NCBI GenBank assembly: GCA_017885605.1
Contig: JAFNFT010000028.1
Span: forward strand, 2,095-52,100
DNA length: 50,006 nt
Reading direction: 5' to 3'
Origin: Methanobacteriota archaeon
GTDB taxonomy: Archaea; Thermoplasmatota; E2; DHVEG-1
A program made the translations under genes and the position numbers. Positions 310 through 36,076 of this stretch are shown in pieces (the first letter of the stretch is position 1; every line of letters starts with the position of its first letter). The notes under the pieces are model-generated. The model was given only the letters and a program-made list of their open reading frames with translations, was not told where the DNA came from and made no database searches.

Positions 310-476
310 CGGTCATTTCCCATCCGTTCTTTTACTCTTTTAAAGGGATGAATGTCTTGGAAGTATATAGAATTGATTCAACTGATCAAGAGGTCTCAAG
401 AAAAGAAAAAAACGATGCTGTTCTAAGATGAAGTTTAAATATATTGCATCTATTTTCAGGATGCAGTGAGGTATCT

Positions 477-1019
477 ATGAAGTTAAAAACGATATTGATA
501 TATATGCTCCTTTTTGTCAACCTTGGCTTTTTTCTGTTTTTAAGCCCGTTATGTACTGCGCAACAAGCAAACGTCTCTATCAAGGAGGTAACTGTACAAT
601 TAACACAAACACGTCCTCCGGTCGGTACGACGACTATACGAGAATATAAAATTACTGCTATTTTACATAACACCGGTGATACAGAATCGGTAAACATCAC
701 CGTCACATTCAAGGACCCCCAACCTGGACTTAATACAAGCCTCATTTTCCAACCTGCTAGTTATTCCTTAAAACCAAATGAAGAGAAAACCTTTGCCTTT
801 GAAAATTGGCCAACGTCTCTATCTGGTGACATTCCTCTTAATATCAGCTTTCGACCTTCGTCACCAAATGTGTTGGAAACCCAGTATAACTCTGATTCTT
901 ATATCTATACATTGCACATCGGAAATGATACAAAGACGACTTCAACCCCTGGTTTTGAAGTCCTGGTTGTTCTGATAGCGATTCTTGCTCTGTTATTTAC
1001 AAAACAAATAAGAAAATAA
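477..1019 (+). CDS. Secreted surface protein with PGF-CTERM archaeosortase sorting signal
   Basis: Start moved to ATG 477 (MKLKTILIYMLLFVNLGFFLFL...), preceded by GTGAGGT and a TTTAAATATATT box. The N-terminus looks like a signal peptide. The C-terminus is a Thr/Ser-rich linker, then PGF, a hydrophobic helix and a basic tail (KTTSTPGFEVLVVLIAILALLFTKQIRK). Confidence 0.7.
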   Translation: MKLKTILIYMLLFVNLGFFLFLSPLCTAQQANVSIKEVTVQLTQTRPPVGTTTIREYKITAILHNTGDTESVNITVTFKDPQPGLNTSLIFQPASYSLKPNEEKTFAFENWPTSLSGDIPLNISFRPSSPNVLETQYNSDSYIYTLHIGNDTKTTSTPGFEVLVVLIAILALLFTKQIRK

Positions 1020-15572: not shown

Positions 15573-15610
15573 TAAAAAAAAGAAAAAGTTGGGGATTTTT
15601 AGTACCCCAA
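15573..15610 (-). terminator. Hairpin plus oligo-T terminator belonging to the decayed C25-like gene fragment
   Basis: The minus strand reads TTGGGGTACTAAAAATCCCCAACTTTTTCTTTTTTTTATC. It is nearly identical to the terminator after 36528..39257 (TTGGGGTACTAAAACCCCATCTCTTTTTTCTTTTTTTTAG). Confidence 0.6.
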
Positions 15611-15721
15611 TAGGCGTCGTAGTATCGAGAATGCATTAGGGAATCGCTGGAACAACCGTTTAAACCACAAATAGTTTATTGACTTTTTGTGCAAATCGTA
15701 TATAACTAAGGTTGAAAATTC
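15599..15721 (-). pseudogene. Orphan 3'-terminal fragment of a C25-like peptidase paralogue (40 codons, no start codon)
   Basis: The minus-frame translation is EFSTLVIYDLHKKSINYLWFKRLFQRFPNAFSILRRLLGY*. The C-terminus of the 947-aa protein is ...KFSFTVFLQHLLEKFPNMFPVLRHLLGY*. Eleven of the last 18 aa are identical, and nucleotides CTACGACrCCTwTTGGGGTACTAAAA are shared. The frame is closed by TGA at 15722-15724. Confidence 0.6.
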
Positions 15722-16311: not shown

Positions 16312-17475
16312 TTATATTGTGTCTTGTTTCACCATACAGATAAACATATTGCGGTCTTTCAGATAGGTGATATGTTCACTGACAAAAACTGACGACCCAT
16401 CTTTTTTCTTATGGATGCTTTTTATTTGCGTGCTGCCTTGTTTCTTAATCTCATCTAAACTTGCTTTGATATCCTTGTACGACTCAAGATAGACGACATC
16501 GGCAAAAGTAAGAGTAAGCATCTCCTCTTTGGTAAATCCAAGCCTCTTTTGGATATCATTCGTACAATCAATGATTCTTGCATCCTCATCAAACAGAATC
16601 ATATAATCAAACTCCTGATCGGTTGTGGTGGTAATAGCTGGTTCCATGATTGGGTTTCCCTTTGATTGAGAGTGCAGAACTTCATGTAGTTGTTTATATG
16701 CGTCACTTAATTTTTTTTCTAGCTCATCTATCTTGGTTTCAGCAACCTGATATTCTGTTGCGTCTCTACTAAAACAACGCAGACCCTGGAAGGTTCCAAC
16801 GCTGTTGAAAACTGGGATACAAAAAGAGCGCACCCACACAGGATGTGAAGTGTCTTGGTGCATCCAATGTAAATCTAATTTATTGGCGTTTTCTGATTTC
16901 TGTTGTGATAGTACGTATATGATGTCTTTAAATTTAGTTGCATCTTCAGGTGGTAGGAATTTAAAAATTTCCTTCCCAATGATTTGCTTTGGGGAGTACC
17001 CAAGGGTCCCGGTGACTTTCGCAGAGCATTTTGTGCATATTCCTTTGTCGTCAATCTCCCAGATCCATCCATCGATTTTTTTTAACAGGATTTCGTATTT
17101 TTCCTCTGCTTCTTCTTTTGCTTTTACCGCATCTTGGAAAATCTCCTCTTTTCTTACCCCGACTTTATTGATAGCTAGTTTGAGGCTTGCCATGACTCGG
17201 TCTAAGGAATTCGTCAGATTATTGATTTCATAAATCTCACTTTTTTCTAGTTCAACATCTAAATTTCCTTTGCTAATTTCATCGATGTTTTCTGTTAATT
17301 TTACAAGAGGCATGGAGATAAAATAGGATATGGCCAATGCGACAGAAAGGGTGATGAACAAAATTAGAACAAGGAAAAGGGTCACAATCTCTAAACCTTG
17401 TAATCCAATAATCAACGCTATCGGTATAAGCGATATCAACAAACACATTATGGTTAATAACCATCGTAATCTCAT
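16312..17475 (-). CDS. Membrane HAMP-PAS-PAS sensor protein without kinase or output domain
   Basis: Two N-terminal TM helices are followed by a HAMP-like segment (PLVKLTENIDEISKGNLDVELE...LTNSLDRVMASL), a coiled coil and two PAS-like modules (...DGWIWEIDDKG....; ...YMILFDEDARIIDCTNDIQKRLGFTKEEM). The ATG overlaps the upstream kinase stop (ATGA at 17472-17475). Confidence 0.75.
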   Translation of the reverse strand: MRLRWLLTIMCLLISLIPIALIIGLQGLEIVTLFLVLILFITLSVALAISYFISMPLVKLTENIDEISKGNLDVELEKSEIYEINNLTNSLDRVMASLKLAINKVGVRKEEIFQDAVKAKEEAEEKYEILLKKIDGWIWEIDDKGICTKCSAKVTGTLGYSPKQIIGKEIFKFLPPEDATKFKDIIYVLSQQKSENANKLDLHWMHQDTSHPVWVRSFCIPVFNSVGTFQGLRCFSRDATEYQVAETKIDELEKKLSDAYKQLHEVLHSQSKGNPIMEPAITTTTDQEFDYMILFDEDARIIDCTNDIQKRLGFTKEEMLTLTFADVVYLESYKDIKASLDEIKKQGSTQIKSIHKKKDGSSVFVSEHITYLKDRNMFICMVKQDTI

Positions 17476-18893
17476 TTTTTCACCTTTGGTTCTCCTCTTA
17501 TTTCTTTATCTGTTTGTTTATTTTCTTCTTTTCGTTCCTCTTCACCAAAAATCTTCCCAATATTGGTTTTTAAATCATCTGCATGTGCATGACGAAGGAT
17601 GCTTTGATTTTCTAAAAAGACGGCATACTCAATGAGGTCTTCTTTGTTAAGAGCGTGTTTATTTTTTAGTTCATTGAACTCGATTTCGCCCATTGGTCCG
17701 AGTGTATCTATTAATTCTTTTCGAATTTTATTTTCAATCTCTCCTTTCTGTGAGAAAAGGACTTTGATTGGTTCGATATCGTGCACGGGTATAATCGGGA
17801 CGGTAAAATAAAATGTGCAACCGAAACCAGGTTTGCTTTCGATCCATATTTTTCCTTTTTGTGCTTCAATGATTCCACGACATATTGTGAGTCCTAGTCC
17901 TGTTCCGCCATAGTTTCTATTTATTGATGGCTCTACTTGGTAAAATGGTTCGAACACACGGATCTGTTCTTCAGTGTTTAGTCCAATTCCTTGATCTTTC
18001 ACGCTGAATCGAATAAAATCTTTTTGTTTTTCCGCGTTGATTTCTATAGTACTGCCGGATGGGGAAAATTTAATAGCGTTATGAACAAGGTTTCGTAATA
18101 CCTGACTAATCCGATCAGGGTCGATCTCAATGATGGGAAGTTCACTTATTCTTGTCTCAAGGGAGATGTTTTTCTCTTTGGCAAATCCGGTCATGAACTC
18201 TATTGTCTCTTTGACTGTTTCATGTAAATCTGTTTTTCTGAACGCGAATTTCAATCGGGCAGCCTCGATACGAGAAATCTCTAGGAAATCTTCGATGATC
18301 TTATTGAGCCGTTCTGCGTTGCGCAGAATTATAGTGATGCTTTCTTTTTGTTTCTCTGTAAGCTTACCAAAGTACTCTTGCTGCAGCATCTGCAGTTGAG
18401 CTTTGAGGGGTGTGATAGGAGTACGAAGTTCATGAGAGGTGATACTGAGGAACTCTGATTTTGATTTGTCAAGGGTGATTCGTTCATCCTCCATCTTACT
18501 TAGCGCGAGAGCGCTTCGATTGAATGCATCGCTGAGTTGAGCCAGTTCATCGTTTGTTTTTATTGTGGTTCTGACTTTAAAGTTCCCTTTTTCTAATTCC
18601 TGTGCAGCTATGTACATGTCGCGGATAGGTTTGGAAAAGGACCGGGAGATGAAAAATCCAATGATCGTGGTGTTGACTGCGATAAGGACAATGATGAGGA
18701 GGGCAGCGGCATCCAAGAGCATTTGTTGTTGACTGAAAAACTCAGAATTTTCGGTGAGGAACGAATTTGCGATTAGATAGAAATAACCTATTCCTATTCC
18801 GGGAGCGACGAGTCCCACAATGAAGAACAATAACGTGAGTTTTATATGTATTCGACCCATGATATAGTTCTTCAGATCCAAAGGTTCCTTCAT
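17472..18893 (-). CDS. Sensor histidine kinase (TM-HAMP-HisKA-HATPase_c) with ~100-aa charged C-terminal extension
   Basis: The H-box is FLSITSHELRTPITPL, the N-box LRNLVHNAIKFSP, the G1 box VKDQGIGL and the G2 box GGTGLGLTICRGI. A HAMP segment lies after two TM helices. Confidence 0.9.
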   Translation of the reverse strand: MKEPLDLKNYIMGRIHIKLTLLFFIVGLVAPGIGIGYFYLIANSFLTENSEFFSQQQMLLDAAALLIIVLIAVNTTIIGFFISRSFSKPIRDMYIAAQELEKGNFKVRTTIKTNDELAQLSDAFNRSALALSKMEDERITLDKSKSEFLSITSHELRTPITPLKAQLQMLQQEYFGKLTEKQKESITIILRNAERLNKIIEDFLEISRIEAARLKFAFRKTDLHETVKETIEFMTGFAKEKNISLETRISELPIIEIDPDRISQVLRNLVHNAIKFSPSGSTIEINAEKQKDFIRFSVKDQGIGLNTEEQIRVFEPFYQVEPSINRNYGGTGLGLTICRGIIEAQKGKIWIESKPGFGCTFYFTVPIIPVHDIEPIKVLFSQKGEIENKIRKELIDTLGPMGEIEFNELKNKHALNKEDLIEYAVFLENQSILRHAHADDLKTNIGKIFGEEERKEENKQTDKEIRGEPKVKK

Positions 18894-19021
18894 GGTTTTC
18901 TTGTTCCTCCATGGGCAACTTTGGAATAATTTTGCAGTATCGTCATTGAGAATCGCGGAGTTTTCTTTTTCATTTTCTCTTGCCTTTTATTCATATCATT
19001 TTCGTTTGTTTACGAATATTT

Positions 19022-19043
19022 TTCATATCAAATTTGATATGAA
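19022..19043. promoter_or_regulatory. Perfect 22-nt palindrome TTCATATCAAATTTGATATGAA (candidate operator upstream of the kinase operon)
   Basis: The sequence equals its own reverse complement. It lies 20 nt past the stop of 19063..20295 and ~130 nt upstream of the kinase ATG (18893). Confidence 0.4.
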
Positions 19044-19062
19044 TCATCTTATACGTTATTTA

Positions 19063-20295
19063 TCATTCTATTTTTGTCGACATCGCCTCATGTAATTCGA
19101 TCATATGGAAGTTGATTCCCATCTCCTCTATTTTTAACAGATATTTTTTATCAAGGGAATTTTTAAATTTCTGGATGAACTCATCGCTGATTTTTTCTCC
19201 TAAGGATTCTGTTATACTTTCAAGGAGGAGGTGGATTGCTCGTCGTGCATCGGTTTCATTGATTGTATCGAGATTACCTCCGATTATGATATGATACAGT
19301 TCTCCTTGTTTGGTTGCCGGCTCTACTTTGATGAGTTGAATGAAATCATACTTCATGTCAATTTTTCGGAGAAACGAATTTACTAAAAAGATCGCATTAT
19401 TCTCCGAACTTGTCTTCCCAATAACATCGATTAAAGTTTTTATTACATGTGTAAATACAGCGTTGAACCCAATCCCTTGCGAGGTTATGGTGACACCCAT
19501 CTCCTTGAGTCTTGTCAGATATTCGAACGTCAGGTGTATCTTGAGGTCACTTGCTATTGAGTTCCGGCCAAGATCAGTAAGTGTTTTGTCCGTCTCTTGG
19601 AGTATTGATGTCAATGCCTTACCAAGATCTTGAAGTTCAATCGTGTTGACCTGCTGTTGCACCACAATTTCCTCAGGTCCGAACGTATATCGAATGTCAT
19701 TGATCAAAATAAAGTCAAGAAAGGGGTACGATTGTCGCAATTTATCGATATGTTGTTTGAGGCAGGCTATTGCAAATGATTTCGAGGTTTGTTTCTCTAC
19801 CGCCTCCAAAAGTACCTTTAAAAATCGTCTGATAACATCAGATTTTTGGATTTCAAGGATGTTTATCGATTTATTCTCCACGATTAAAGTCGACTGCATC
19901 AATGATAAGTCAACATTCATTGTCTTCAGGAGGAATCTATCATATTCGATACCAATTTTTTCCCGTGTTTCTCGAATGAAGAAATATCCTGCGGTTTTTC
20001 CGAACGAGATCATTATTTTTGTTACGAGTTCTTTTAACGCACGTCCAACATCTTTTGCCGCAATCGTATTCAGTGCGTCTTTCACTGATACCGAACCTTC
20101 CATTTCTAAGGAACGCGTATTTTTGATTTCTATTTCCCGTAAAAAAGGATAGGTCAGTTGAAGTTTTTTTACGAGATTTTGTATAGTGACTGCTGCATAT
20201 TCTTGTGATGTTTTTCTTCCGATGATTTCGATTATTGTCTCTATAAATTGTCGAGTAACATCAGCAGTATCCAGCATAAGATCCCATCTCATCAC
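19063..20295 (-). CDS. Three-repeat protein of unknown family (3 x ~125 aa), linked to the two-component genes
   Basis: The internal triplication is visible by eye. Each unit runs (V/I)xxxxIxxLxExxGxKTS...(L)xxKLxxxYPFLxxIxI...NTI...LGxAL...(FFI)...xEYL...MG(V/I)... Confidence 0.65.
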   Translation of the reverse strand: MMRWDLMLDTADVTRQFIETIIEIIGRKTSQEYAAVTIQNLVKKLQLTYPFLREIEIKNTRSLEMEGSVSVKDALNTIAAKDVGRALKELVTKIMISFGKTAGYFFIRETREKIGIEYDRFLLKTMNVDLSLMQSTLIVENKSINILEIQKSDVIRRFLKVLLEAVEKQTSKSFAIACLKQHIDKLRQSYPFLDFILINDIRYTFGPEEIVVQQQVNTIELQDLGKALTSILQETDKTLTDLGRNSIASDLKIHLTFEYLTRLKEMGVTITSQGIGFNAVFTHVIKTLIDVIGKTSSENNAIFLVNSFLRKIDMKYDFIQLIKVEPATKQGELYHIIIGGNLDTINETDARRAIHLLLESITESLGEKISDEFIQKFKNSLDKKYLLKIEEMGINFHMIELHEAMSTKIE

Positions 20296-20507
20296 TCTTA
20301 TGGTGGTCTATTCGAGTGGTTTCCATCTCCACATAACATAATATCAATGTTCTTTAAATGTCTTGCTTTCGTAAAAAACCTATGATATCCTCTCTTACAT
20401 TTTTTCATGATTATCGATAGACATCAACCAATAAACCGGTATAGGTTTCTAATGTGTAGGGAAAATATGATTAATTATATATACTTAAAAAGAGTTGATT
20501 GGAGCGG

Positions 20508-20894
20508 ATGGTAAAAACAATACTCGTGGTTGATGATTATGCCGATATTGTCGTCTCAGTCAAACAAGTCTTAGAGGATACAACAGGAGAATATCGTGTT
20601 ATTGGTGTTGATAGCGGTGAAAAATGTCTCCAAATATTACAGCAGGAGGCTTCACTCCCTGACCTTATCTTGCTTGATATCATGATGCCAGGGATGAGCG
20701 GATGGGATGTTGCTGCTCGTATAAAACAAAACGATCGATGGCGTTCTGTCCCTATTGTTTTTTTGACCGCGAAGGGTGACGAGATGAGTATCGGGATCGG
20801 TCATCTTGCATCAGAAGACTATATCGTGAAACCCTTCGATATCATGAAATTGAAGGATTGCGTCAGACGAATCCTTACGAATCCCCCAGAGTAA
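20508..20894 (+). CDS. Stand-alone CheY-like response-regulator receiver
   Basis: MVKTILVVDDYADI...PDLILLDIMMPGMSGWDV...PIVFLTAKGD...DYIVKPFD contains the acidic pocket DD, the phospho-acceptor D in LLDIMMP, and the conserved T and K. There is no output domain. Start set at ATG 20508. Confidence 0.9.
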   Translation: MVKTILVVDDYADIVVSVKQVLEDTTGEYRVIGVDSGEKCLQILQQEASLPDLILLDIMMPGMSGWDVAARIKQNDRWRSVPIVFLTAKGDEMSIGIGHLASEDYIVKPFDIMKLKDCVRRILTNPPE

Positions 20895-21117: not shown

Positions 21118-23481
21118 ATGAAGAATAGAATACCTAGATTGAAAAAAGGTTATACTCTATGCGTTTTTTTCACGTTGATTCTGTCCATGGAATTGGGAGG
21201 TCTTCTCGCAGCACAAGAAATAACGAACCATACGTTTCCTTCTATTGTTGCCACTGTTCCTCTGTCAGAACAGCATACACTTATGGACATTATTCAGAAG
21301 AGGATTACCATTCTTGAGGTGAACCGATCAAGAACTTCTGTCGTCATCCTTGTCTCAGCGGACGAATTCGCTTGGTTGTCTTCGATGAATTTTTCCCCAG
21401 CGGTTATCCCTGATTCCGTTGCAGAAGCGCATGGGTGGAAGTACTCCCCTGAGTTTGAACGTGATTTTCACTCCTACTCCCAGATGACGACCGAACTTCA
21501 AACCATCGCAACTACCTACCCTGAGATTGCTCATTTATATGATCTTGGGCAGAGTGTACAAGGCCGGATTCTCTGGGGATTAAAAATCACTGATAACCCT
21601 GATATCGAGGAAAACGAACCTGAGGTCCGCATCTGCGGTCTTCATCATGGGAACGAGTACATGTCCGCTGAGTTACCCTTGAATCTTGCATTGCTCCTTG
21701 TTCAAAACTATAGCAGTGATCCTACAATCACCGAGCTGGTCGATACTCGGGAGATCTGGATAATCCCGATGGTGAACCCCGATGGCAGGGAGGCAGGTTC
21801 TCGGTATAATGCTCATGGTGTTGATTTGAACAGGAACTATGGGTACATGCCCGAAAGTGCAACACCATATTCTGAGCCAGAGACATGTGCGATGCGAAAC
21901 AACGCGGTACAGAACAACTTTGTCCTTTCATTATCGTTTCATTGCTCTGGAGATATCGTCAACTACGTCTGGAATTATAAAAATCAACGAGTCCCTGATA
22001 ACAACGCTATTGAATATCTGTCGGAACAATACGGTTCGCATAATGGGTATTGGGTCGTAGAAGGCTATGATTGGTACCAGACTCTTGGTGATTGTAATGA
22101 TTTCAGTTACGGAACTCGTGGTGATATCGACTGGACCGTTGAAGTACAAAACTCAGATATCCCGCAGGCATGGGACCTGAACCGGGATGCGATCCTGGAG
22201 ATTATCGATGCAGCAGACATGGGACTTACCGGGGTGGTAACAAATGCAGATAACGGGCAACCGATCCCTGCGACCGTCTGGGTTGAAGAGGCGTTCTGGC
22301 CTTGTTTCGCAGACCCTGAGATCGGGGATTACCATAAAGTGCTGTTACCAGGAACCTATACGGTTCATTATCAAGCCAATGGTTTCCAGGAAAAGATATT
22401 GTCTGTTGATGTGGACGCAGGCGAACCGACTGTATTAAATGTCGCGCTTCACCCTTCTCCTCACTACTATGCGTACCAGGTTACGACCTGCGCGTACTAT
22501 GCGCCGTCTGATAATTATCAGAATAACCCAACAGAGGGGATCGCATCACTAGGAATCCCTGACGATGTTTGTGCATCACTTGGCGTTGGCGGATACATTA
22601 TCTTGGATATGCTGAATCAGATCACCGATGTCCCCGATGCCAATGACCTGAAGGTGTACGAAGGAGATGCGACGAACGATGGTTACCTGGTGTACGTGTC
22701 CAGTGATTGGCAAGGACCTTGGATATCACTCGGGACCGGAATGGGGACCACGGAGTTCGATCTAGCAAATGGATCTGTTGAATCAGCACGCTATGTAAAA
22801 ATCGTTGATGATGGAAACGGAAATCCCTCCGAACTTAATCCCGCTGCTGATATTGATGCGGTGGAAAACCTTGCGACAGCAAACCAAAATCAAGCCCCGG
22901 ATAACCCAGCCCGACCAGATGGTCCAACAACCGGGGGAACGAACATCGATTATTCATACACAACCACCACAACCGATCCCGAATCCCAACAGGTGTACTA
23001 CCTGTGGTCCTGGGGCGATAGCATGGGGACTTGGCTTGGTCCGTTTGATTCTGGAGTTCCTGCTCAGGCGACTCATCAGTGGAACGTCTCTGGTGATTAC
23101 ACTGTGAAAGTGAAAGCAAAGGATGTCAAAGGAGTCGAAAGCGGATGGTCTGATTCCGTCACCGTGCGTATTGTGGGGGCTCCTCGTATCGAGATCGGTG
23201 AGATTTCCAGTGGTTTTGGGAGTGTCACCGTGCAGATAAAAAACACTGGTGCGGGGGACGCAGTCAATGTCACCTGGTCTATTTCTCTCCAGGGCGGTCT
23301 GGTACTTCTTGGGCGGCAGACGACCGGAACGATTTTGAAAATCCTCCCTGGGTTTAATCCTCTGGTCAAAACAGGCTTTCTCTTCGGTCTTGGGAAGACG
23401 ACCATAACGGTAACAGCGGATACAGCTAGTAAAACAGTATCAGCGTTCCTCCTTGGACCTTTTGTCATAATCCAAGACTAG
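21118..23481 (+). CDS. Secreted zinc carboxypeptidase (peptidase family M14) with PKD-like module and conserved ~100-aa C-terminal domain
   Basis: A signal-peptide-like N-terminus is followed by the M14 motifs GLHHGNEYMS (HxxE), PMVNPDG, HGVDLNRNYG, SFHCSG (third Zn ligand) and DWTVEV (catalytic Glu). The PKD-like module is YYLWSWGDSMGTWLGPFDSG...YTVKVKAKDVKGVESGWS. The C-terminal domain spans 23176..23478. Confidence 0.85.
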   Translation: MKNRIPRLKKGYTLCVFFTLILSMELGGLLAAQEITNHTFPSIVATVPLSEQHTLMDIIQKRITILEVNRSRTSVVILVSADEFAWLSSMNFSPAVIPDSVAEAHGWKYSPEFERDFHSYSQMTTELQTIATTYPEIAHLYDLGQSVQGRILWGLKITDNPDIEENEPEVRICGLHHGNEYMSAELPLNLALLLVQNYSSDPTITELVDTREIWIIPMVNPDGREAGSRYNAHGVDLNRNYGYMPESATPYSEPETCAMRNNAVQNNFVLSLSFHCSGDIVNYVWNYKNQRVPDNNAIEYLSEQYGSHNGYWVVEGYDWYQTLGDCNDFSYGTRGDIDWTVEVQNSDIPQAWDLNRDAILEIIDAADMGLTGVVTNADNGQPIPATVWVEEAFWPCFADPEIGDYHKVLLPGTYTVHYQANGFQEKILSVDVDAGEPTVLNVALHPSPHYYAYQVTTCAYYAPSDNYQNNPTEGIASLGIPDDVCASLGVGGYIILDMLNQITDVPDANDLKVYEGDATNDGYLVYVSSDWQGPWISLGTGMGTTEFDLANGSVESARYVKIVDDGNGNPSELNPAADIDAVENLATANQNQAPDNPARPDGPTTGGTNIDYSYTTTTTDPESQQVYYLWSWGDSMGTWLGPFDSGVPAQATHQWNVSGDYTVKVKAKDVKGVESGWSDSVTVRIVGAPRIEIGEISSGFGSVTVQIKNTGAGDAVNVTWSISLQGGLVLLGRQTTGTILKILPGFNPLVKTGFLFGLGKTTITVTADTASKTVSAFLLGPFVIIQD

Positions 23482-23738
23482 GTGTTTTCCTTAATACTTT
23501 CTTTTTTACTAGTACTACAGAAGATAGATCCTTTTTTTAAAATATACTGCTTCAAGTGTTACATTGTTGCTAAGCAGTGAAGATACGGAGGGTGCTGACC
23601 CATAGGAATCAGAAGGTTTTAGGGACGAGAAGAGTGTTTCATTGTGGTTTTTTTGATTTTCATAGGGTCGATATCTATATAAATACAAATTTTGTTAGAG
23701 TTAATTATTAGTAAATTTTATACTAGGGGATATGAAGA

Positions 23739-26105
23739 ATGAATTGGAGTAGTAAGAAAAAGGTAAGTATTCAAGCAACGGTTGCGCTGGTACTCCTGCT
23801 TTGCGCAGGGGTGAGTGCAATTCATCCAACGACGGCATCGACGTCGACGAAAGTAAATACTGTAGAATCGACATTTCATTTCGAAAACGTACCCTTCATT
23901 ACGGTGACCGTGACACCGCCAGCTCTTGTGTTTGGTCAGCGTATTCTTGCAGGGCAACCGTTTGCTACTGTGCAACTGCCCGGAGAAGGCGTCTCAACGG
24001 TGATCGGTGAAGCACAGCTGCCGACTATCTCTCGATTCATTGAGATCCCACAAGGTGCGATTCCTCAACTTGTTGTTGAATCGGTGACCTGGGAGACCGT
24101 CTCGCTGGAAGCGTTGAACCTCCCATCATCGGTGGTCCCTGTTCAACCCTCGCTGATAAAAATTGAGGGGGCGACTGTTCCATTTTCCAAAGATGATTCG
24201 TTCTATGCATTGGATGCGTCTTTACCAATGTCAATAGCGACAGTGAACGCTCTGGGGGAGTTACGCAGTCGACAGATCGCGTTCCTGCAGGTTTCTCCGG
24301 TGCAATATAACCCTGTGTCTGGTGAACTACGGATTATGACCCAGTGTGATTTACGCATTGATCTTCCGGGTAGCGACCTTGTGACGACAGCGGAGAAGAT
24401 TGATCGGTATACTACCCCATCCTTTGAACAATTGTTTGAAACATCGTTCATGAACTATGGTGATTTGCAAGGGACTTCACAGATGGGGCCAAAGCAGGAG
24501 GGATATCTCATCATCGTTGATGACGACTTCGTTGATGCAATTCAGCCCTTAGTTGACTGGAAGGATTCAAAGGGATTTGATGTTACGATGACGAAAACCT
24601 CAGAGATATCCGGTAGTCCAACTAAAGAGAATATCAAAAATTACATCGTTGATGCATATAATTCCTGGTCGATACCACCAGCATATATCCTGTTAGTTGG
24701 TGATGTCGCACAAATCCCAACATGGACTGGCTCAGAAACTGGTACTTGTACAGATTTATATTATGTGACCATTGATAGTGGGAATTATTTTGCTGACGTT
24801 ATCATCAGTAGGTTCCCTGCAGCGACCGCAGAGCAAGTTACTACGATGGTAGATAAAACAGTTTTTTATGAACAAGGATCTTTCCCTGATGAGGCTTGGA
24901 TTAACAAGGCAGCTTTTACGGCATCAGATGATTATACTTATTGGACTGTTGCTGAAGCTACACAAAACTATGTGATTGATACTTATATGACACCAAATGG
25001 TTACACAAGCGACAAACTATACGCACACACTTATGGCGCTGATACCCAGGATATCCTCAACTCTTTAAACGATGGACGCAGTCTTGCAATCTACACAGGT
25101 CATGGCTCAACAGATTCATGGGCAGGTCCTGCATTTGGCCAAAGTAATGTAAACAGCCTTACCAACGATGGAATGTACCCATTTGTCGCTAGCCACGCGT
25201 GTCTTACATGTCAGTTTACCGTTAGTGAATGCTTTGGGGAAACATGGCTGCGTGCACCAAACAAAGGTGGTCTAGCCTTCTGGGGTGCGACGACCTATTC
25301 CTACTGGGACGAGGACGATATCCTGGAACGAAGCATGTTTAAAGCCTGGTGGGACGACAGCATTGAGACTATCGGTGGCATGACCAACATGGGGTTGTAT
25401 TATCTCTATCAATATTATAGTGGTGGCGGGATGAGCCAATACTACTTCGAGGAGTACAACGTTCTTGGTGATTCCTCTGTGAAAATCTGGCGCGGTGAAT
25501 CAAACGGAAACACGCCACCTACTACTCCTGATGCACCCACTGGACCGTCAACCGGAGGAATCGGCATAGAATACATATTTACGACCAGAGCTACCGATGC
25601 ACAGAATAATGATGTGTACTATATGGTGTCTTGGGGAGATTCAATCAGTGACTGGCTAGGCCCGTACGCTTCTGGAGACGTTGTGAGTTTGAAACATACC
25701 TGGGACTTTGTTGGAGACTACAGCGTTACCGTAAAGGCAAAGGACAGCGAAGGCTTGGAGAGCGGCTGGTCAGAAACATCCCAGATTAGCGTTGTTGCCT
25801 TACCTCGGATCGAGATCGGTGATATTACCGCTAGTTTTGGGAGTATTTCCGCGCAGATAAAAAACGTTGGTGCTGGAGACGCAACGAATGTTGACTGGTC
25901 TATTTCTCTTGAGGGAAAACTGGTTTTTTTCGGCAAGGAGACCACCGGTTCGTTTACCAAGATTATACCTGGGTTTAGCCCAAAAGCAAAAACGAGTTTT
26001 GTGTTCGGGTTTGGCTCGGTGGATATTCTTGTCACAGTCGGTGATCTAGAGAAAACAGCGACCGCTACATTGGTTGGACCGTTTTTCCTTAAGGTGGGGG
26101 AATAA
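23739..26105 (+). CDS. Secreted cysteine peptidase, family C25 (gingipain-type), with propeptide, PKD-like module and conserved ~100-aa C-terminal domain
   Basis: After a signal peptide comes a propeptide-like N-domain (GEAQLPTISRFIEIP...). The catalytic region is YLIIVDDDF...LVDWK..KGF...ILLVGD...IPTW...DLYY...ISRFPA. The His is in YTGHGS and the Cys in SHACLTCQF, 33 residues later. The C-terminal domain spans 25797..26102. Confidence 0.85.
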   Translation: MNWSSKKKVSIQATVALVLLLCAGVSAIHPTTASTSTKVNTVESTFHFENVPFITVTVTPPALVFGQRILAGQPFATVQLPGEGVSTVIGEAQLPTISRFIEIPQGAIPQLVVESVTWETVSLEALNLPSSVVPVQPSLIKIEGATVPFSKDDSFYALDASLPMSIATVNALGELRSRQIAFLQVSPVQYNPVSGELRIMTQCDLRIDLPGSDLVTTAEKIDRYTTPSFEQLFETSFMNYGDLQGTSQMGPKQEGYLIIVDDDFVDAIQPLVDWKDSKGFDVTMTKTSEISGSPTKENIKNYIVDAYNSWSIPPAYILLVGDVAQIPTWTGSETGTCTDLYYVTIDSGNYFADVIISRFPAATAEQVTTMVDKTVFYEQGSFPDEAWINKAAFTASDDYTYWTVAEATQNYVIDTYMTPNGYTSDKLYAHTYGADTQDILNSLNDGRSLAIYTGHGSTDSWAGPAFGQSNVNSLTNDGMYPFVASHACLTCQFTVSECFGETWLRAPNKGGLAFWGATTYSYWDEDDILERSMFKAWWDDSIETIGGMTNMGLYYLYQYYSGGGMSQYYFEEYNVLGDSSVKIWRGESNGNTPPTTPDAPTGPSTGGIGIEYIFTTRATDAQNNDVYYMVSWGDSISDWLGPYASGDVVSLKHTWDFVGDYSVTVKAKDSEGLESGWSETSQISVVALPRIEIGDITASFGSISAQIKNVGAGDATNVDWSISLEGKLVFFGKETTGSFTKIIPGFSPKAKTSFVFGFGSVDILVTVGDLEKTATATLVGPFFLKVGE

Positions 26106-31692: not shown

Positions 31693-34386
31693 ATGAAGAA
31701 TAAAACAAAACATAAAAGTACAGTAGGCAAACTAGGTGTCGTTTTTATCATTTGCATCGCAATGATTTTGACATCTGCAGTGACATCGGTTGGAAACGCA
31801 TCCAAACTAGACCAATTCATGCTGAACAGTCGAATGGTCTACACCTTTGATTTTAAGGAACCAACACTCCAAGCAGCCAATGCAGACTATACAACGATCA
31901 CGATGCCAGGGTGTCTGGCGATCGGGAAAACAGCAGGTGACCCAGTGGTCCCTGTAAAAATCATCACCCTGCTCATACCACCCAACAAAGCAGTCTCGCG
32001 GATCAATGTCCTTGGAACACCTGTGACTCTGAATCTACAGGATGTCAATTTGATGCAAAAACCACTCTTCCCACAACAACGATCTGTTCCTATTGGCAGT
32101 GATGAACCCTATGAGTTTGTCATAAACTCAGCGCTGTATTCATCGGATGCCTATTACCCGACGACACGGTATGCGGACTATGCTATTGGTTATTCCCATG
32201 GATATACGATTCTTTCCTTTAGTCTCAACCCGGTTCAATACAACCCAGTGCAGGGAACCATCGTCTATTACCCGAAAATGACGGTCAGTATCACGTTACA
32301 ACCAGCGGAGAATGCAAACCAATTCTTCAGTAACAACCCTGCTGATAAGACCTATGTCCAATCCTTGGTTTCAAACCCTGAGATAGCGAACCTGTACCAA
32401 AATGCTCCCTTACCTGTGTTTGAATATGGAGGCGGACTGTGCGATCCTGCTGACAGCTATGATTACGTGATTATTACCACGACTCAGAACGGGCTTGACT
32501 ATTGGGATACGAGTGGTTCTACCCCTTATAACTGGGAAAGTCTGATGGATCATCATGCTGGTGATGGGTTGAGCTGTACCCTGGTGACCGTTCAGGACAT
32601 CTATGCCTGTTCTGATTATTATCTCCCCAATCCCTTCAATGACACCAGGGCACATATCCGTGAGTTCTGTAAGGATGCCTACGAGGACTGGGGAACACGA
32701 TATATTCTCATCGCTGGTGATGCTGATACGATTCCTGCGCGGCAGTTATACTATTCTTATGAAGGGAATTTCGACTCTGATGTCTACTGGAGTAACCTGG
32801 ATAACGATTTCAATAACGATCAGGATGCTCAATGGGGCGAATCAGGGGATAGCGGCTACGATTTATATTCTGAGATGTTCATCGGGCGTGTCACTTGTGA
32901 TGTTCCTCAGGATGTCTCAAATTGGCTGACAAAGAGTTTCTACTACGCGGATAGCTCAGATTTTGACTATTTAGATAATGCAGGATTCTTTGGCGGTTCC
33001 CTCGGATTTCCCGGCATCGAAGGCGATGACTTCATTGATTATAGTGCAATAAAAGGCACAACGAACTATTTTGGAACAGATCCTGATTATGCTGGTCCTT
33101 ATCCAACCTGGCTTGGCTTCCTGTACGGTTTTGAGACCTGGAATGAGGTAAACCCTGGAAACCAATTTAACCTGTCTGTAAAGATAACCAGTGAAAACCC
33201 AAATCCAGGTTGGACCGGAGGAGGAACGAATGCATTTAAAAACGCTGTCAACGATGACCAAGTGACCCTCATCAGTTGCGTTGCTCATGCAAATGAACAC
33301 ATGTCTATGGATATCTACGATACTGAGTGGGAAAGCCAATATCATAACACAAAACCATTCTTCCTTTCTGATTACGGCTGTCACTGTGGAGATTTTGACG
33401 CAACCGATGACGGTGTCATCGAATCGATGCTGTTCCATTCAAATACAGAACTCGCCTTTGGCGTTGTCTACAACACTGCGTCTGGATGGGGACAATTTTA
33501 TTGCACGAACTCAAGCAGTGCACATCAACAAAAATTATTCTGGGATTATTTCTTTGATATGGAAAACAACTCTGTTGACTACAGTAATTGGCAACTTGGG
33601 AAAGGACATGCATGGTCAAAAGATATGATGGCTCCCATGATCAACTGGGGTGATTATGAAGAATCGCGTAGCACCATAGGCTGCTGTCTCCTCTTTGGTG
33701 ATCCTGCACAGGTACTAAAATCTGCGTCTCCCAGTGATGCACCAACACAACCGACAAAACCAGTCGGCTCAACCCTTGGGATCTGGAACGTTGAGTATGC
33801 GTATACCAGTAGCGCAACTGATCCAAACACAGATCAGATTTTCTACTTGTTCGACTGGGCAGACGGCAGCAACAGCGGATGGCTCGGACCTTACCCCTCA
33901 GGACAAACCGGGACAGCATCACACATATGGACTGAACTTGGGACATACAACGTCAAGGTAAAGGCTCGAGATGTTTGGGGTGCAGGGAGTGCCTGGTCAG
34001 ATGAATTATTGGTAACGATTACTGATAACAACCTACCGAGTATACCGATTATCACCGGTCCCGGGGAAGGAGTACCAGGAAACCAATACCTCTACAACAT
34101 TGTCTCCGAGGATCTTGATGGCCATGATATCTCCTACTTCGTTGACTGGGGCGATAATACAACCACTGGGTGGCTTGGTCCGTACGTCTCTGGTACCCAG
34201 ATACATGTACTACATTCCTGGAATGTGACGGGAACATACATCGTAAAAGCCAAAGCTAAGGACACCATGAACGGAGAAAGTGACTGGGGCGTTCTCACAA
34301 TCGTAGTACCCGTTGAAGTAGGCTTCAGCAGTACGACCCAGCAACTCTTCGCAAGCCTCCTGTTTGATCAACGCGTAATGGGTTAA
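31693..34386 (+). CDS. Secreted divergent C25-like cysteine peptidase with two PKD-like modules (paralogue A)
   Basis: It has a signal peptide and a Propeptide_C25-like N-domain (YTFDFKEPTLQ...GCLAIGKTAGDPVVPVK). The core is YDYVIITT...ILIAGDADTIPARQ...DVYWSNLD...FIGRV. The His is in CVAHANEH and the Cys in GCHCGDF (second Cys 33 residues after the His). Two WxDGxxxGWLGPYxSG...VKxKAxD modules follow. Confidence 0.7.
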   Translation: MKNKTKHKSTVGKLGVVFIICIAMILTSAVTSVGNASKLDQFMLNSRMVYTFDFKEPTLQAANADYTTITMPGCLAIGKTAGDPVVPVKIITLLIPPNKAVSRINVLGTPVTLNLQDVNLMQKPLFPQQRSVPIGSDEPYEFVINSALYSSDAYYPTTRYADYAIGYSHGYTILSFSLNPVQYNPVQGTIVYYPKMTVSITLQPAENANQFFSNNPADKTYVQSLVSNPEIANLYQNAPLPVFEYGGGLCDPADSYDYVIITTTQNGLDYWDTSGSTPYNWESLMDHHAGDGLSCTLVTVQDIYACSDYYLPNPFNDTRAHIREFCKDAYEDWGTRYILIAGDADTIPARQLYYSYEGNFDSDVYWSNLDNDFNNDQDAQWGESGDSGYDLYSEMFIGRVTCDVPQDVSNWLTKSFYYADSSDFDYLDNAGFFGGSLGFPGIEGDDFIDYSAIKGTTNYFGTDPDYAGPYPTWLGFLYGFETWNEVNPGNQFNLSVKITSENPNPGWTGGGTNAFKNAVNDDQVTLISCVAHANEHMSMDIYDTEWESQYHNTKPFFLSDYGCHCGDFDATDDGVIESMLFHSNTELAFGVVYNTASGWGQFYCTNSSSAHQQKLFWDYFFDMENNSVDYSNWQLGKGHAWSKDMMAPMINWGDYEESRSTIGCCLLFGDPAQVLKSASPSDAPTQPTKPVGSTLGIWNVEYAYTSSATDPNTDQIFYLFDWADGSNSGWLGPYPSGQTGTASHIWTELGTYNVKVKARDVWGAGSAWSDELLVTITDNNLPSIPIITGPGEGVPGNQYLYNIVSEDLDGHDISYFVDWGDNTTTGWLGPYVSGTQIHVLHSWNVTGTYIVKAKAKDTMNGESDWGVLTIVVPVEVGFSSTTQQLFASLLFDQRVMG

Positions 34387-34430: not shown

Positions 34431-34669
34431 ATAATTACCCTCAGCTATTACAGAAATAAAAAATAGGCATAGCTTGTGTCCTACCTTCCATTATTTCTAT
34501 ATATATTGTTTATTGTGATACATCATTTATATACTAATCATCATTTTCCTTCACTCACTTTTGATTGAATTTTTTATTACTTTTTTTAAAGAATTATAAG
34601 AATATAAGGAAAAACATCGACAATAGATTTAAATACAGAATGACTATAATTAATAATGGGGATAAAAAT

Positions 34670-36076
34670 ATGAAAAGAGTAATACAAATATGGTTAGTAG
34701 CAATTTTTATAGGCTGCCTTGTTGGAACAAGTGTTCTTCCTGCGGTAGATAGTCAACAAAATCAAATAAACATCAAATCTACAGATGGAGCAATCTCGAA
34801 TGTACCGTATACTGGTCGCCTGCGTGTTTATGTGGTCGAACCTGTCTCACGATGGAACATGTATAATGGACAACCATACCATTTTGGATTCCTTGGTTTT
34901 GCATTCAATCAAGACATCTCAATTGATCCACAGGATACCTATCAAAACTCGATAACCTGGACTGGGGACGTAACCGAGTCAAATGCCATGGTTATGGCTG
35001 TTGTGTTCAATTCTGAACCACATCAGGGGTATGCGTATCCTCCCTCAAGTAATCCCTTCACGGCGTACTACAACGATGCGACTGCAGCAGCAACACCAGG
35101 AAACACTGGGTACAATACTGTGAACGAAACTTTCACACACACTGTTTTTGCTGAAGAGGCCACCGCAACATGGTGCCCCTATTGTCCAGATATGGCTACC
35201 AAACTCAATAATATCTACGAATCAGGTACCTATCCCTATTACTTCGTTGCATTGGTTGCTGATCAGAATGCACAGGCTCAAACTCGAATAAATGAATACA
35301 ACACCTACGGGTACCCAACAGCATTTTTTGACGGTGGATTAAAAGTCATTGTCGGTAGCGGCGTCAGTGAAACTGTCTACCGTAACGATATAAAGAATTG
35401 TGGAAACCGTGATGTCCCTGAACTCAATCTCTCAGTCTCAGTCACCTATATCGGAAGTGGAGATCTTCAAATCGATGTAACCATTACAAACAATCCGGCT
35501 GGAGAAGACTTAGTCTGTGACGCAGGCGGACCCTACACTGGGGAAATCAACGTCCCAGTTCAGTTCACTGGTGTTGCATCCGGTGGAACAGAACCGTACA
35601 CCTGGGCATGGGCCTTTGGTGACGGCGCTACCGCATCAGTCCAAAACCCAACCCACACCTATACCACAAAAGGCACCTACACTGCCACCCTGACAGTCAC
35701 GGATGCAGCATCAGGCACAGCCACGGATACAGCAACAGCTACCATCACCGAACCTGTGTTACTTCCCGTGTTAGAAATCGGGACAATCACCGGTGGATTC
35801 GATGTGAAAGCATCAGTGAAAAACACTGGAGAAGCAGCTGCAACAAATGTTGTCTGGACGCTGAGTCTTGACGGAAAATTAGTCTTCCTTGGAAAGGAAT
35901 CCACGGGTACAATCGCAACCCTCGCAGTTGCAGGAAACGAACCAATTAAAGCAGGGTTCATCCTTGGCTTTGGTAAAACAAACATCGCCATTTCAGCAAC
36001 CTGCGATGAAGGCGTATCCGCAGAGGCAACCGCAAGCGGGTTAGTCCTCGGACCATTCGTCCTTGGAGTGAAATAA
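34670..36076 (+). CDS. Secreted thioredoxin-like (WCPYC) protein with canonical PKD domain and the conserved ~100-aa C-terminal domain
   Basis: Start set at ATG 34670 (GGGGAT RBS; MKRVIQIWLVAIFIGCLVGTSVLPA signal peptide). EEATATWCPYCPDM...YGYPTAFFDGG is a thioredoxin-fold pattern. The PKD domain is FTGVASGGTEPYTWAWAFGDGATA..NPTHTYTTKGTYTATLTVTD. The C-terminal domain spans 35765..36073. Confidence 0.7.
   Translation: MKRVIQIWLVAIFIGCLVGTSVLPAVDSQQNQINIKSTDGAISNVPYTGRLRVYVVEPVSRWNMYNGQPYHFGFLGFAFNQDISIDPQDTYQNSITWTGDVTESNAMVMAVVFNSEPHQGYAYPPSSNPFTAYYNDATAAATPGNTGYNTVNETFTHTVFAEEATATWCPYCPDMATKLNNIYESGTYPYYFVALVADQNAQAQTRINEYNTYGYPTAFFDGGLKVIVGSGVSETVYRNDIKNCGNRDVPELNLSVSVTYIGSGDLQIDVTITNNPAGEDLVCDAGGPYTGEINVPVQFTGVASGGTEPYTWAWAFGDGATASVQNPTHTYTTKGTYTATLTVTDAASGTATDTATATITEPVLLPVLEIGTITGGFDVKASVKNTGEAAATNVVWTLSLDGKLVFLGKESTGTIATLAVAGNEPIKAGFILGFGKTNIAISATCDEGVSAEATASGLVLGPFVLGVK

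Follow-up and report, generated by a model that had tools for sequence, protein, structure and literature searches.

C-terminal domains that mark secreted proteins of unrelated function are best known from the type IX secretion system (T9SS) of Bacteroidota, where immunoglobulin (Ig)-like beta-sandwiches of about 80–100 residues stand at the extreme C terminus of Sec-exported proteins with diverse heads, including peptidases of the C25 gingipain family. A second arrangement, the archaeal PGF-CTERM/archaeosortase A system, uses a short signal made up of a motif, a transmembrane helix and a basic stretch. The clostridial collagenases carry collagen-binding (PPC-type) C-terminal domains after PKD domains; binding modules are usually matched to the substrate of the head, can stand inside a protein as well as at either of its ends, and often come as repeats. 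Here, we analysed a stretch of 50,006 nucleotides from an archaeon of the Thermoplasmatota (GenBank assembly GCA_017885605.1, contig JAFNFT010000028.1, positions 2,095 to 52,100; GTDB lineage E2, DHVEG-1), referred to below as the window, in which an M14 carboxypeptidase, a C25 peptidase (C25a) and a thioredoxin-fold protein end in the same segment of about 100 residues. A first interpretation made without database searches, the sequence-only reading, had proposed this segment as a cargo tag or surface-attachment domain analogous to the T9SS C-terminal domain. The three segments are best explained as copies of a hitherto undescribed beta-sandwich domain, CARDB-like and specific to the lineage, which we name the Thermoplasmatota C-terminal domain (CTD), and PKD plus CTD are best explained as a modular C-terminal cassette of Sec-exported proteins of the Thermoprofundales (MBG-D, for Marine Benthic Group D) and related Thermoplasmatota. 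We class the CTD as a putative C-terminal localisation domain; its sequence family was previously without description. As to function, we see about an even chance that it is a retained, non-catalytic localisation module: with PKD as its stalk, it would keep enzymes exported through Sec on the cell surface or attached to a common scaffold.

The homology of the last ~100 residues of the three proteins, as proposed from the sequence, was borne out, with the translations as claimed and identities of 43–54%. The hand count of 55 identical positions between the M14 and C25a copies was reproduced in a MAFFT alignment (55/101), in which the other two pairs share 45/98 and 42/98 positions. BLASTP comparisons of the full-length proteins gave E=4e-60, 3e-24 and 2e-21, with similarity in the C-terminal part only, and a hidden Markov model (HMM) of the three copies, run against a six-frame translation of the window, recovered just those three (E 1e-45 to 1e-52; next best E 0.5). 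While a shared block of ~100 residues was thus correctly recognized, its true extent is ~181–190 residues and takes in the PKD domain: M14 and C25a align without gaps over PKD and CTD (residues 604–784), with 96 of 181 positions identical (53%). Pfam places a PKD domain upstream of the CTD in all three proteins and confirms that the heads are unrelated, being Peptidase_M14 plus CarboxypepD_reg, Propeptide_C25 plus Peptidase_C25, and a weak thioredoxin fold, respectively. Each copy forms the extreme C terminus of a long + strand open reading frame (ORF), and the N-termini of all three proteins are signal-peptide-like. The absence of PGF-CTERM and of a transmembrane helix from the three ends was upheld by NCBIfam and inspection of the sequences, as was the use of PGF-CTERM elsewhere in this genome, in ORF 444–1019 (+), which scores 24.9 bits with TIGR04126 (cut-off 24.5). 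A recent duplication or gene conversion as the origin of the three copies was considered and rejected: each subtype stays with its own head in other metagenome-assembled genomes (MAGs), the M14-type CTD of locus L001 being 84% identical to that of the window, compared with the 43–54% among the window's own three copies.

In an AlphaFold2 model based on a 39-sequence alignment, the CTD folds as an eight-stranded all-beta domain (predicted local distance difference test, pLDDT, 97.2; predicted template modelling score, pTM, 0.87), which agrees with the CARDB/Ig-like nature suggested from the sequence-only reading. CARDB (PF07705) is the sole consistent Pfam match of the three copies, at 17.0, 16.5 and 21.4 bits (E 7e-3, 1e-2 and 3e-4), all below the gathering threshold of 22.7, and 22 of 95 family members match it at E<=1e-3. 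The two share the common core xKNxG...A.NV.W.I.L and a beta-sandwich fold, and the CTD profile cross-matches genuine CARDB repeats. CARDB domains are typically internal tandem repeats, whereas the CTD subfamily is single-copy and C-terminal only, and generic repeats do not match its first strand (P-x-L-E-I-G-x-I-x-G-G) or its last strands (LLGPFVLxVK or VLLFFIKI). Judged by these profile matches and by the predicted model, the CTD is a divergent, remote relative of CARDB with a shared fold. No NCBIfam model matched it at E<=1 or E<=10, no Pfam PPC (PF04151) or carbohydrate-binding module (CBM) was listed at E<=10, and a search of PDB sequences with the family profile gave 0 matches at E<=10. 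Among the top 50 Foldseek matches in the PDB there were generic Ig-like sandwiches only, with best template modelling (TM) scores of 0.55–0.66 (pilins, transglutaminase barrels and FnIII domains of GH3 enzymes). Top matches to archaeal pilin, FlaF and TRAP-beta were also considered; they were weak (TM <= 0.55) and were dismissed as uninformative. When PKD and CTD were modelled together, two confident domains with a loose mutual orientation were obtained (pLDDT 92, pTM 0.64), a predicted arrangement that would suit a terminal module on a stalk. The best match of this two-domain model is a structural-genomics entry, PDB 4xed. It shows the PKD domain of a homologous M14-like peptidase encoded in an MBG-D single-cell genome, that of Thermoplasmatales archaeon SCGC AB-540-F20, and aligns to residues 589–679 of the M14 protein (window 22882–23154) with 36% identity and a root-mean-square deviation of 1.2 Å. 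The 4xed construct stops just before the CTD would start, and the CTD has in this way escaped structural work.

When 1.84 billion representative proteins, clustered at 50% identity, were searched exhaustively with the profile, 3,070 clusters matched at E<=1e-3, of which 1,854 reached E<=1e-10. The strictly terminal position seen in the window holds for the family: among the best 150 matches, the CTD ends <=11 residues from the C terminus in 148 and <=8 residues in 147. The two exceptions (P0069 and P0145) are proteins of 2,500–2,700 residues with 12–14 ordinary CARDB repeats, which match the profile core only (approximately positions 37–88). In 12 Thermoplasmata/Thermoplasmatota MAG loci, found with the three-sequence alignment and often containing several CTD genes in a group, all 26 copies end 0–2 residues before the stop codon, and the domain is likewise strictly terminal in 176/176 CTD-bearing homologues of the M14 and C25a heads. 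Internal or variable positions, named beforehand in the sequence-only reading as an observation that would speak against a tag, were looked for in these best matches, loci and head homologues, and the domain kept its place. As a homologue search with the domain alone gave fragments of <=179 residues, architectures were taken from the exhaustive search. They extend the diversity of heads that had been noticed in the window: of 95 full-length members, 42 carry PKD and 17 BNR repeats, and others have PQQ and other propellers, beta-helix, M28, C25, FG-GAP, thioredoxin or InhA-MAM regions. Nearly all carriers have a single CTD copy, and a crude pattern detects a signal peptide in ~90 of 130 members. 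All named carriers are Thermoplasmatota, Thermoprofundales/MBG-D included, a taxonomy that is based on few named records; among them are the MAGs M11B2D, M9B2D, 3300003432D and SM1-50, which are listed as Thermoprofundales/MBG-D by Zhou et al. (PMC6461988). The linker from the preceding domain to the CTD is 3–6 residues long, usually with a proline, and no conserved cleavage motif was found in these linkers. Several metagenomic proteins from outside the window (P0053–P0068; 133–170 residues) contain only a signal peptide joined to the CTD by a short linker; some belong to several conserved clusters on contigs of up to 57 kb, and some keep a vestige of the last PKD strand. The existence of such signal-peptide-plus-CTD proteins argues for an autonomous role of the domain.

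Further insight came from close homologues of the heads, many of which end differently. Among 120 homologues of the M14 head (57–98% identical), 85 have the CTD, 35 have a short tail and none has neither; among 119 homologues of the C25a head (58–100% identical), the corresponding numbers are 91 and 26, the remaining 2 being truncated. This tail, termed here the FP-tail (ERFPNAFPxLRxLLGL), is a segment of ~25–30 residues that follows PKD and replaces the CTD on close M14 and C25 homologues (carriers P0265, P0289, P0320, P0323, P0333–P0337 and P0391–P0468). It is moderately amphipathic, with an 11-residue helical hydrophobic moment of 0.5–0.6; neither Pfam nor NCBIfam has a model for it, and neither the CTD nor the tail was described in the literature that was searched. 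In the 26 tailed C25a homologues, a second PKD domain is followed by ...F(L)ERFPNAFPxLRHLLGL or by a Q-rich ...QLLLKILKQL. Similarity between C25a and a tail-bearing homologue spans residues 1–686 and breaks exactly at the CTD boundary. Heads that are up to 85–88% identical differ in their ending, and parsimony requires at least 6 switches for M14 and at least 3 for C25a, counts that are rough minima obtained on unweighted pair group (UPGMA) trees of identity distances. Both endings are present in the window itself, with the CTD on M14 and C25a and the tail on C25c. The M14 and C25a heads therefore show choice-of-anchor behaviour in an operational sense, with homologous heads carrying mutually exclusive alternative ends as putative anchors, and by their sequences they appear to require one of two C-terminal elements that have repeatedly been exchanged by recombination. 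Such repeated swapping on near-identical heads, a pattern by which exchangeable localisation signals are recognised, favours a localisation or surface-retention module. No other C-terminal anchor was found on CTD proteins. In being exchanged between homologous secreted heads and in excluding other C-terminal anchors the CTD resembles PGF-CTERM, from which it differs in being a folded domain of 100 residues with no motif–transmembrane–basic signal, no transmembrane helix and no identified sortase-type partner.

Several further endings were observed. In a third type, a Q/S-rich stretch precedes a short LLxxLLxR-like segment of amphipathic character, as in the C25 paralogue C25b (...TTQQLFASLLFDQRVMG) and in homologues ending ...QLLLKILKQL; some C25a homologues have Q-rich/amphipathic tails similar to that of C25b. 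A 1386-residue protein of locus L011 (3697–7854) also has this ending (...SISSILQRLFNLR), which may be a degenerate FP-tail. An isolated frame of 31–40 codons in the window (15599–15721, − strand) ends with the FP-tail motif (...WFKRLFQRFPNAFSILRRLLGY) with no PKD or head upstream; it is probably what is left of a tail-bearing gene after decay, or else a tiny ORF.

CARDB is a repeat found very commonly on archaeal surfaces, and the remote homology to it, together with the generic structural matches, would also fit an Ig-like cap without specific function, which owes its terminal place to the common descent of one recombining PKD–CARDB cassette. We consider this highly improbable, as a single copy is kept 0–8 residues from the stop codon in more than 1,800 clusters and on dozens of head types, as the family-specific first and last strands are conserved but absent from ordinary CARDB repeats, and as the domain alternates strictly with another C-terminal element, with essentially no homologue lacking both.

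According to the localisation model that we favour, the N-terminal signal peptide would take the pre-protein through Sec, and the catalytic head and the PKD spacer would fold outside the cell. The CTD would emerge last and remain joined to the protein, and by binding non-covalently to some component of the envelope or to a shared scaffold it would keep the enzyme at or near the surface, so that the peptidases, the disulfide-active protein and other exoenzymes could act beside the transporters of the cell. The short ERFPNAFPxLRxLLGL element would be a second C-terminal signal with which the CTD is functionally interchangeable. A number of points weigh against this model. The association of the enzymes with the cell is itself something that we infer, together with the shared retention function, the bound target and the uncleaved state of the CTD. 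It is by analogy that the FP-tail is taken to be an anchor for which the CTD can substitute. The generic Ig-like structural matches mean that the fold points to no ligand. The median grand average of hydropathy (GRAVY) of the CTD is +0.41, compared with −0.33 for the heads, and was considered as evidence of membrane binding; this was largely undone by a control with ordinary CARDB repeats (+0.26), and a value modestly above theirs is no strong sign of membrane binding. Neither a conserved receptor nor a processing-enzyme candidate was found in the neighbourhoods of the window, the 12 genome loci and one 263-kb contig, the loci containing further CTD genes plus syntenic housekeeping or two-component genes. 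In addition, domain position was read in the best 150 of ~3,070 clusters, some 2,900 weaker ones lying outside that sample. Finally, there may be no retention: the enzymes could be set free, and the CTD could serve to bind substrate or particles.

This last proposal, in which the CTD would tether enzymes to insoluble detrital matter in the way of collagenase collagen-binding domains or CBMs, draws on the order of head, PKD and terminal beta-sandwich that is also found in the collagenases ColG and ColH, on the carriers being mostly hydrolases of sediment archaea, and on the beta-sandwich being common among binding modules, and free-standing CTD proteins exist. The likeness to PPC/collagen-binding domains lies in this order behind a peptidase head; the CTD differs in having no Pfam PPC or CBM signal and in occurring on many non-peptidase heads. 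It is single-copy, strictly terminal and attached to chemically unrelated heads (thioredoxin fold, PQQ, BNR and peptidases), and it alternates with a tail of ~25 residues, which is too small for a binding domain. We therefore think it rather unlikely that the CTD is a substrate-binding module, and suggest that it would serve in attachment instead.

As regards the T9SS, the proposed analogy was sustained in part. The functional architecture, an extreme C-terminal beta-sandwich on diverse cargo with Sec signals, is that of T9SS cargo, but kinship was not found by sequence, structure or host. Neither Por_Secre_tail (PF18962; Pfam, E<=10) nor TIGR04183 (NCBIfam) matched, no T9SS CTD was among the top 50 Foldseek matches in the PDB, and scans of the window proteins revealed none of the components PorK/L/M/N, SprA or PorU/V. 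The host is an archaeon without a known outer membrane or T9SS, and for these reasons the CTD does not belong to the T9SS CTD family. The very short linkers of 3–6 residues without a motif argue against a cleaved secretion tag, and so does the single-membrane nature of the archaeon, which needs no second translocation step. The CTD could nevertheless be a true sorting signal convergent with T9SS CTDs or sortase substrates, cleaved off by a dedicated machine that attaches the cargo covalently to a surface lipid or glycan. The combination of Sec signal, diverse heads and a near-terminal beta-sandwich of ~100 residues fits the logic of T9SS cargo, the choice-of-anchor pattern is also consistent with it, and C25 peptidases with and without CTD stand together in the cluster, and one of those without it might act like PorU; the PorU model matches C25a weakly, at 66.6 bits where its cut-off is 420. 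The CTD-less C25b and C25c do not match this model at E<=0.1, no machinery gene is conserved beside the cargo genes, and a protein with nothing beyond a signal peptide and the CTD would make no sense as cargo, being all tag. Taken with the sequence, structure, linker and membrane arguments above, this makes a cleaved sorting signal distinctly unlikely in our view. A broader proposal, which we regard as speculative and quite unlikely, is that Thermoplasmatota have an as yet undiscovered system for sorting or surface attachment, convergent with T9SS and sortase tagging, whose two cargo signals are the CTD and the FP-tail and which would have a receptor or processing enzyme of its own, possibly a CTD-less C25 paralogue.

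The CTD could also be a self-association or docking module that builds a multi-enzyme complex in the manner of cohesin and dockerin. Complementary enzymes of one cluster share it (endopeptidase, carboxypeptidase and disulfide-active protein), it has conserved runs of consecutive hydrophobic residues (CTD positions 41–44, 67–71 and 90–96), so that these strands may have one face exposed as a hydrophobic interface, and the CTD-only proteins could be adaptors. No scaffold with repeated receptor domains was seen in the loci examined, and the hydrophobic runs may be core packing, given that AlphaFold2 folds the monomer at pLDDT 97. We hold such a docking role to be very unlikely.

In marine sediments, the Thermoprofundales (MBG-D) rank with the most abundant archaea. 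They express many extracellular C25, M14 and M28 peptidases and are thought to live on detrital protein (PMC6461988), and the CTD may bear on how these uncultured cells keep exoenzymes and their products close. It is a terminal, head-independent domain spread over thousands of clusters with neither a Pfam/NCBIfam model nor a solved structure. An HMM of the CTD offers a handle for defining the secreted and surface proteome of these archaea, and the swapping of endings gives a hypothesis on localisation. If a dedicated partner exists, this would be a new archaeal protein-sorting system, and a two-signal sorting system, if true, would organize the extracellular proteolysis of a highly abundant group of sediment archaea.

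The coordinates of the PKD and CTD regions and of the genes around them are collected in Table 1.

Table 1. Genes and domains of the exoenzyme cluster (positions in the window)
Feature	Position	Strand	Evidence and remarks
M14 carboxypeptidase gene, 787 residues	21118..23481	+	Signal peptide, Peptidase_M14 (Pfam E 3e-45), CarboxypepD_reg, PKD, CTD
PKD of M14 protein, residues 591–684	22888..23169	+	Pfam PKD_4/PKD; homologous to C25a PKD
CTD copy 1 (M14), 101 residues, CARDB-like beta-sandwich	23176..23478	+	Translation, alignment, AlphaFold2
C25a gene (C25, gingipain-family peptidase), 788 residues	23739..26105	+	Propeptide_C25, Peptidase_C25 (Pfam E 1e-70), PKD, CTD
PKD-like domain of C25a, residues 602–685	25542..25793	+	Weak Pfam PKD_4, E 0.005
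CTD copy 2 (C25a), 102 residues	25797..26102	+	Translation, alignment, sub-threshold CARDB
Secreted protein, 1690 residues	26419..31491	+	InhA-like MAM, 4x choice-of-anchor J (NCBIfam E 2e-42), OmpL47-type beta-barrel, Big_7
C25b, C25 peptidase paralogue without CTD	31693..34386	+	Pfam; PKD, then short tail ...TTQQLFASLLFDQRVMG (34303–34383)
Thioredoxin-fold protein gene, WCPYC motif, PKD, CTD	34565..36076	+	Pfam PKD_4 E 6e-17, weak Thioredoxin match
PKD of thioredoxin-fold protein, ORF residues 319–395	35519..35749	+	Pfam
CTD copy 3 (thioredoxin-fold), 103 residues	35765..36073	+	CARDB E 3e-4, 21.4 bits vs gathering cut-off 22.7
C25c, C25 peptidase paralogue without CTD	36414/36528–39257	+	Pfam; PKD–PKD, then tail ...FLQHLLEKFPNMFPVLRHLLGY (about 39174–39254)

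The genes of the M14 protein, C25a, the InhA-MAM/choice-of-anchor J protein, C25b, the thioredoxin-fold protein and C25c form a run of secreted-protein genes on the + strand. The true start of the thioredoxin-fold protein is likely an internal ATG near 34640, and its signal peptide follows MKRVIQIW. The large InhA-type protein has a Q-rich end (...QQQSQPTLKLNQQTKLI) with neither CTD nor FP-tail nor a recognized C-terminal anchor; its orthologue in locus L002 has more than 2353 residues. M14 orthologues of identical architecture are present in loci L001–L003 and L013, which share with the window the order of response regulator, M14-CTD, C25a-CTD and large InhA protein.

Directly upstream of the peptidase cluster (window 16312–20894) is a two-component set, consisting of a PAS protein, a HAMP-HisKA-HATPase kinase, a 410-residue protein without a Pfam match and a 128-residue, receiver-only response regulator. 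It is also found in L003 (1047–6990) and L013 (2413–5084), and its retention in other MAGs suggests that the exoenzyme cluster is under regulated expression. In L013, a contig of 263 kb (ENA ERZ25039461 contig_63383), the C25a, InhA and kinase genes are broken into several short calls, probably through frameshift errors of the long-read assembly, which explains 'stand-alone' CTD fragments such as P0002. Further along the window, a 506-residue protein (41832–43352, + strand) has a signal peptide and, near its C terminus, a HELGH zinc-metallopeptidase-like motif; it carries neither CTD nor tail and matched no Pfam or NCBIfam family. The window also encodes a class I lysyl-tRNA synthetase, an archaeal trait alongside PGF-CTERM. 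With the CTD, the FP-tail and PGF-CTERM in one genome, at least three different C-terminal endings occur on its surface proteins. The PGF-CTERM protein mentioned above has a weak Heimdall-CTERM score too, and its body holds a CARDB-like HNTGDTESVNITVTF stretch.

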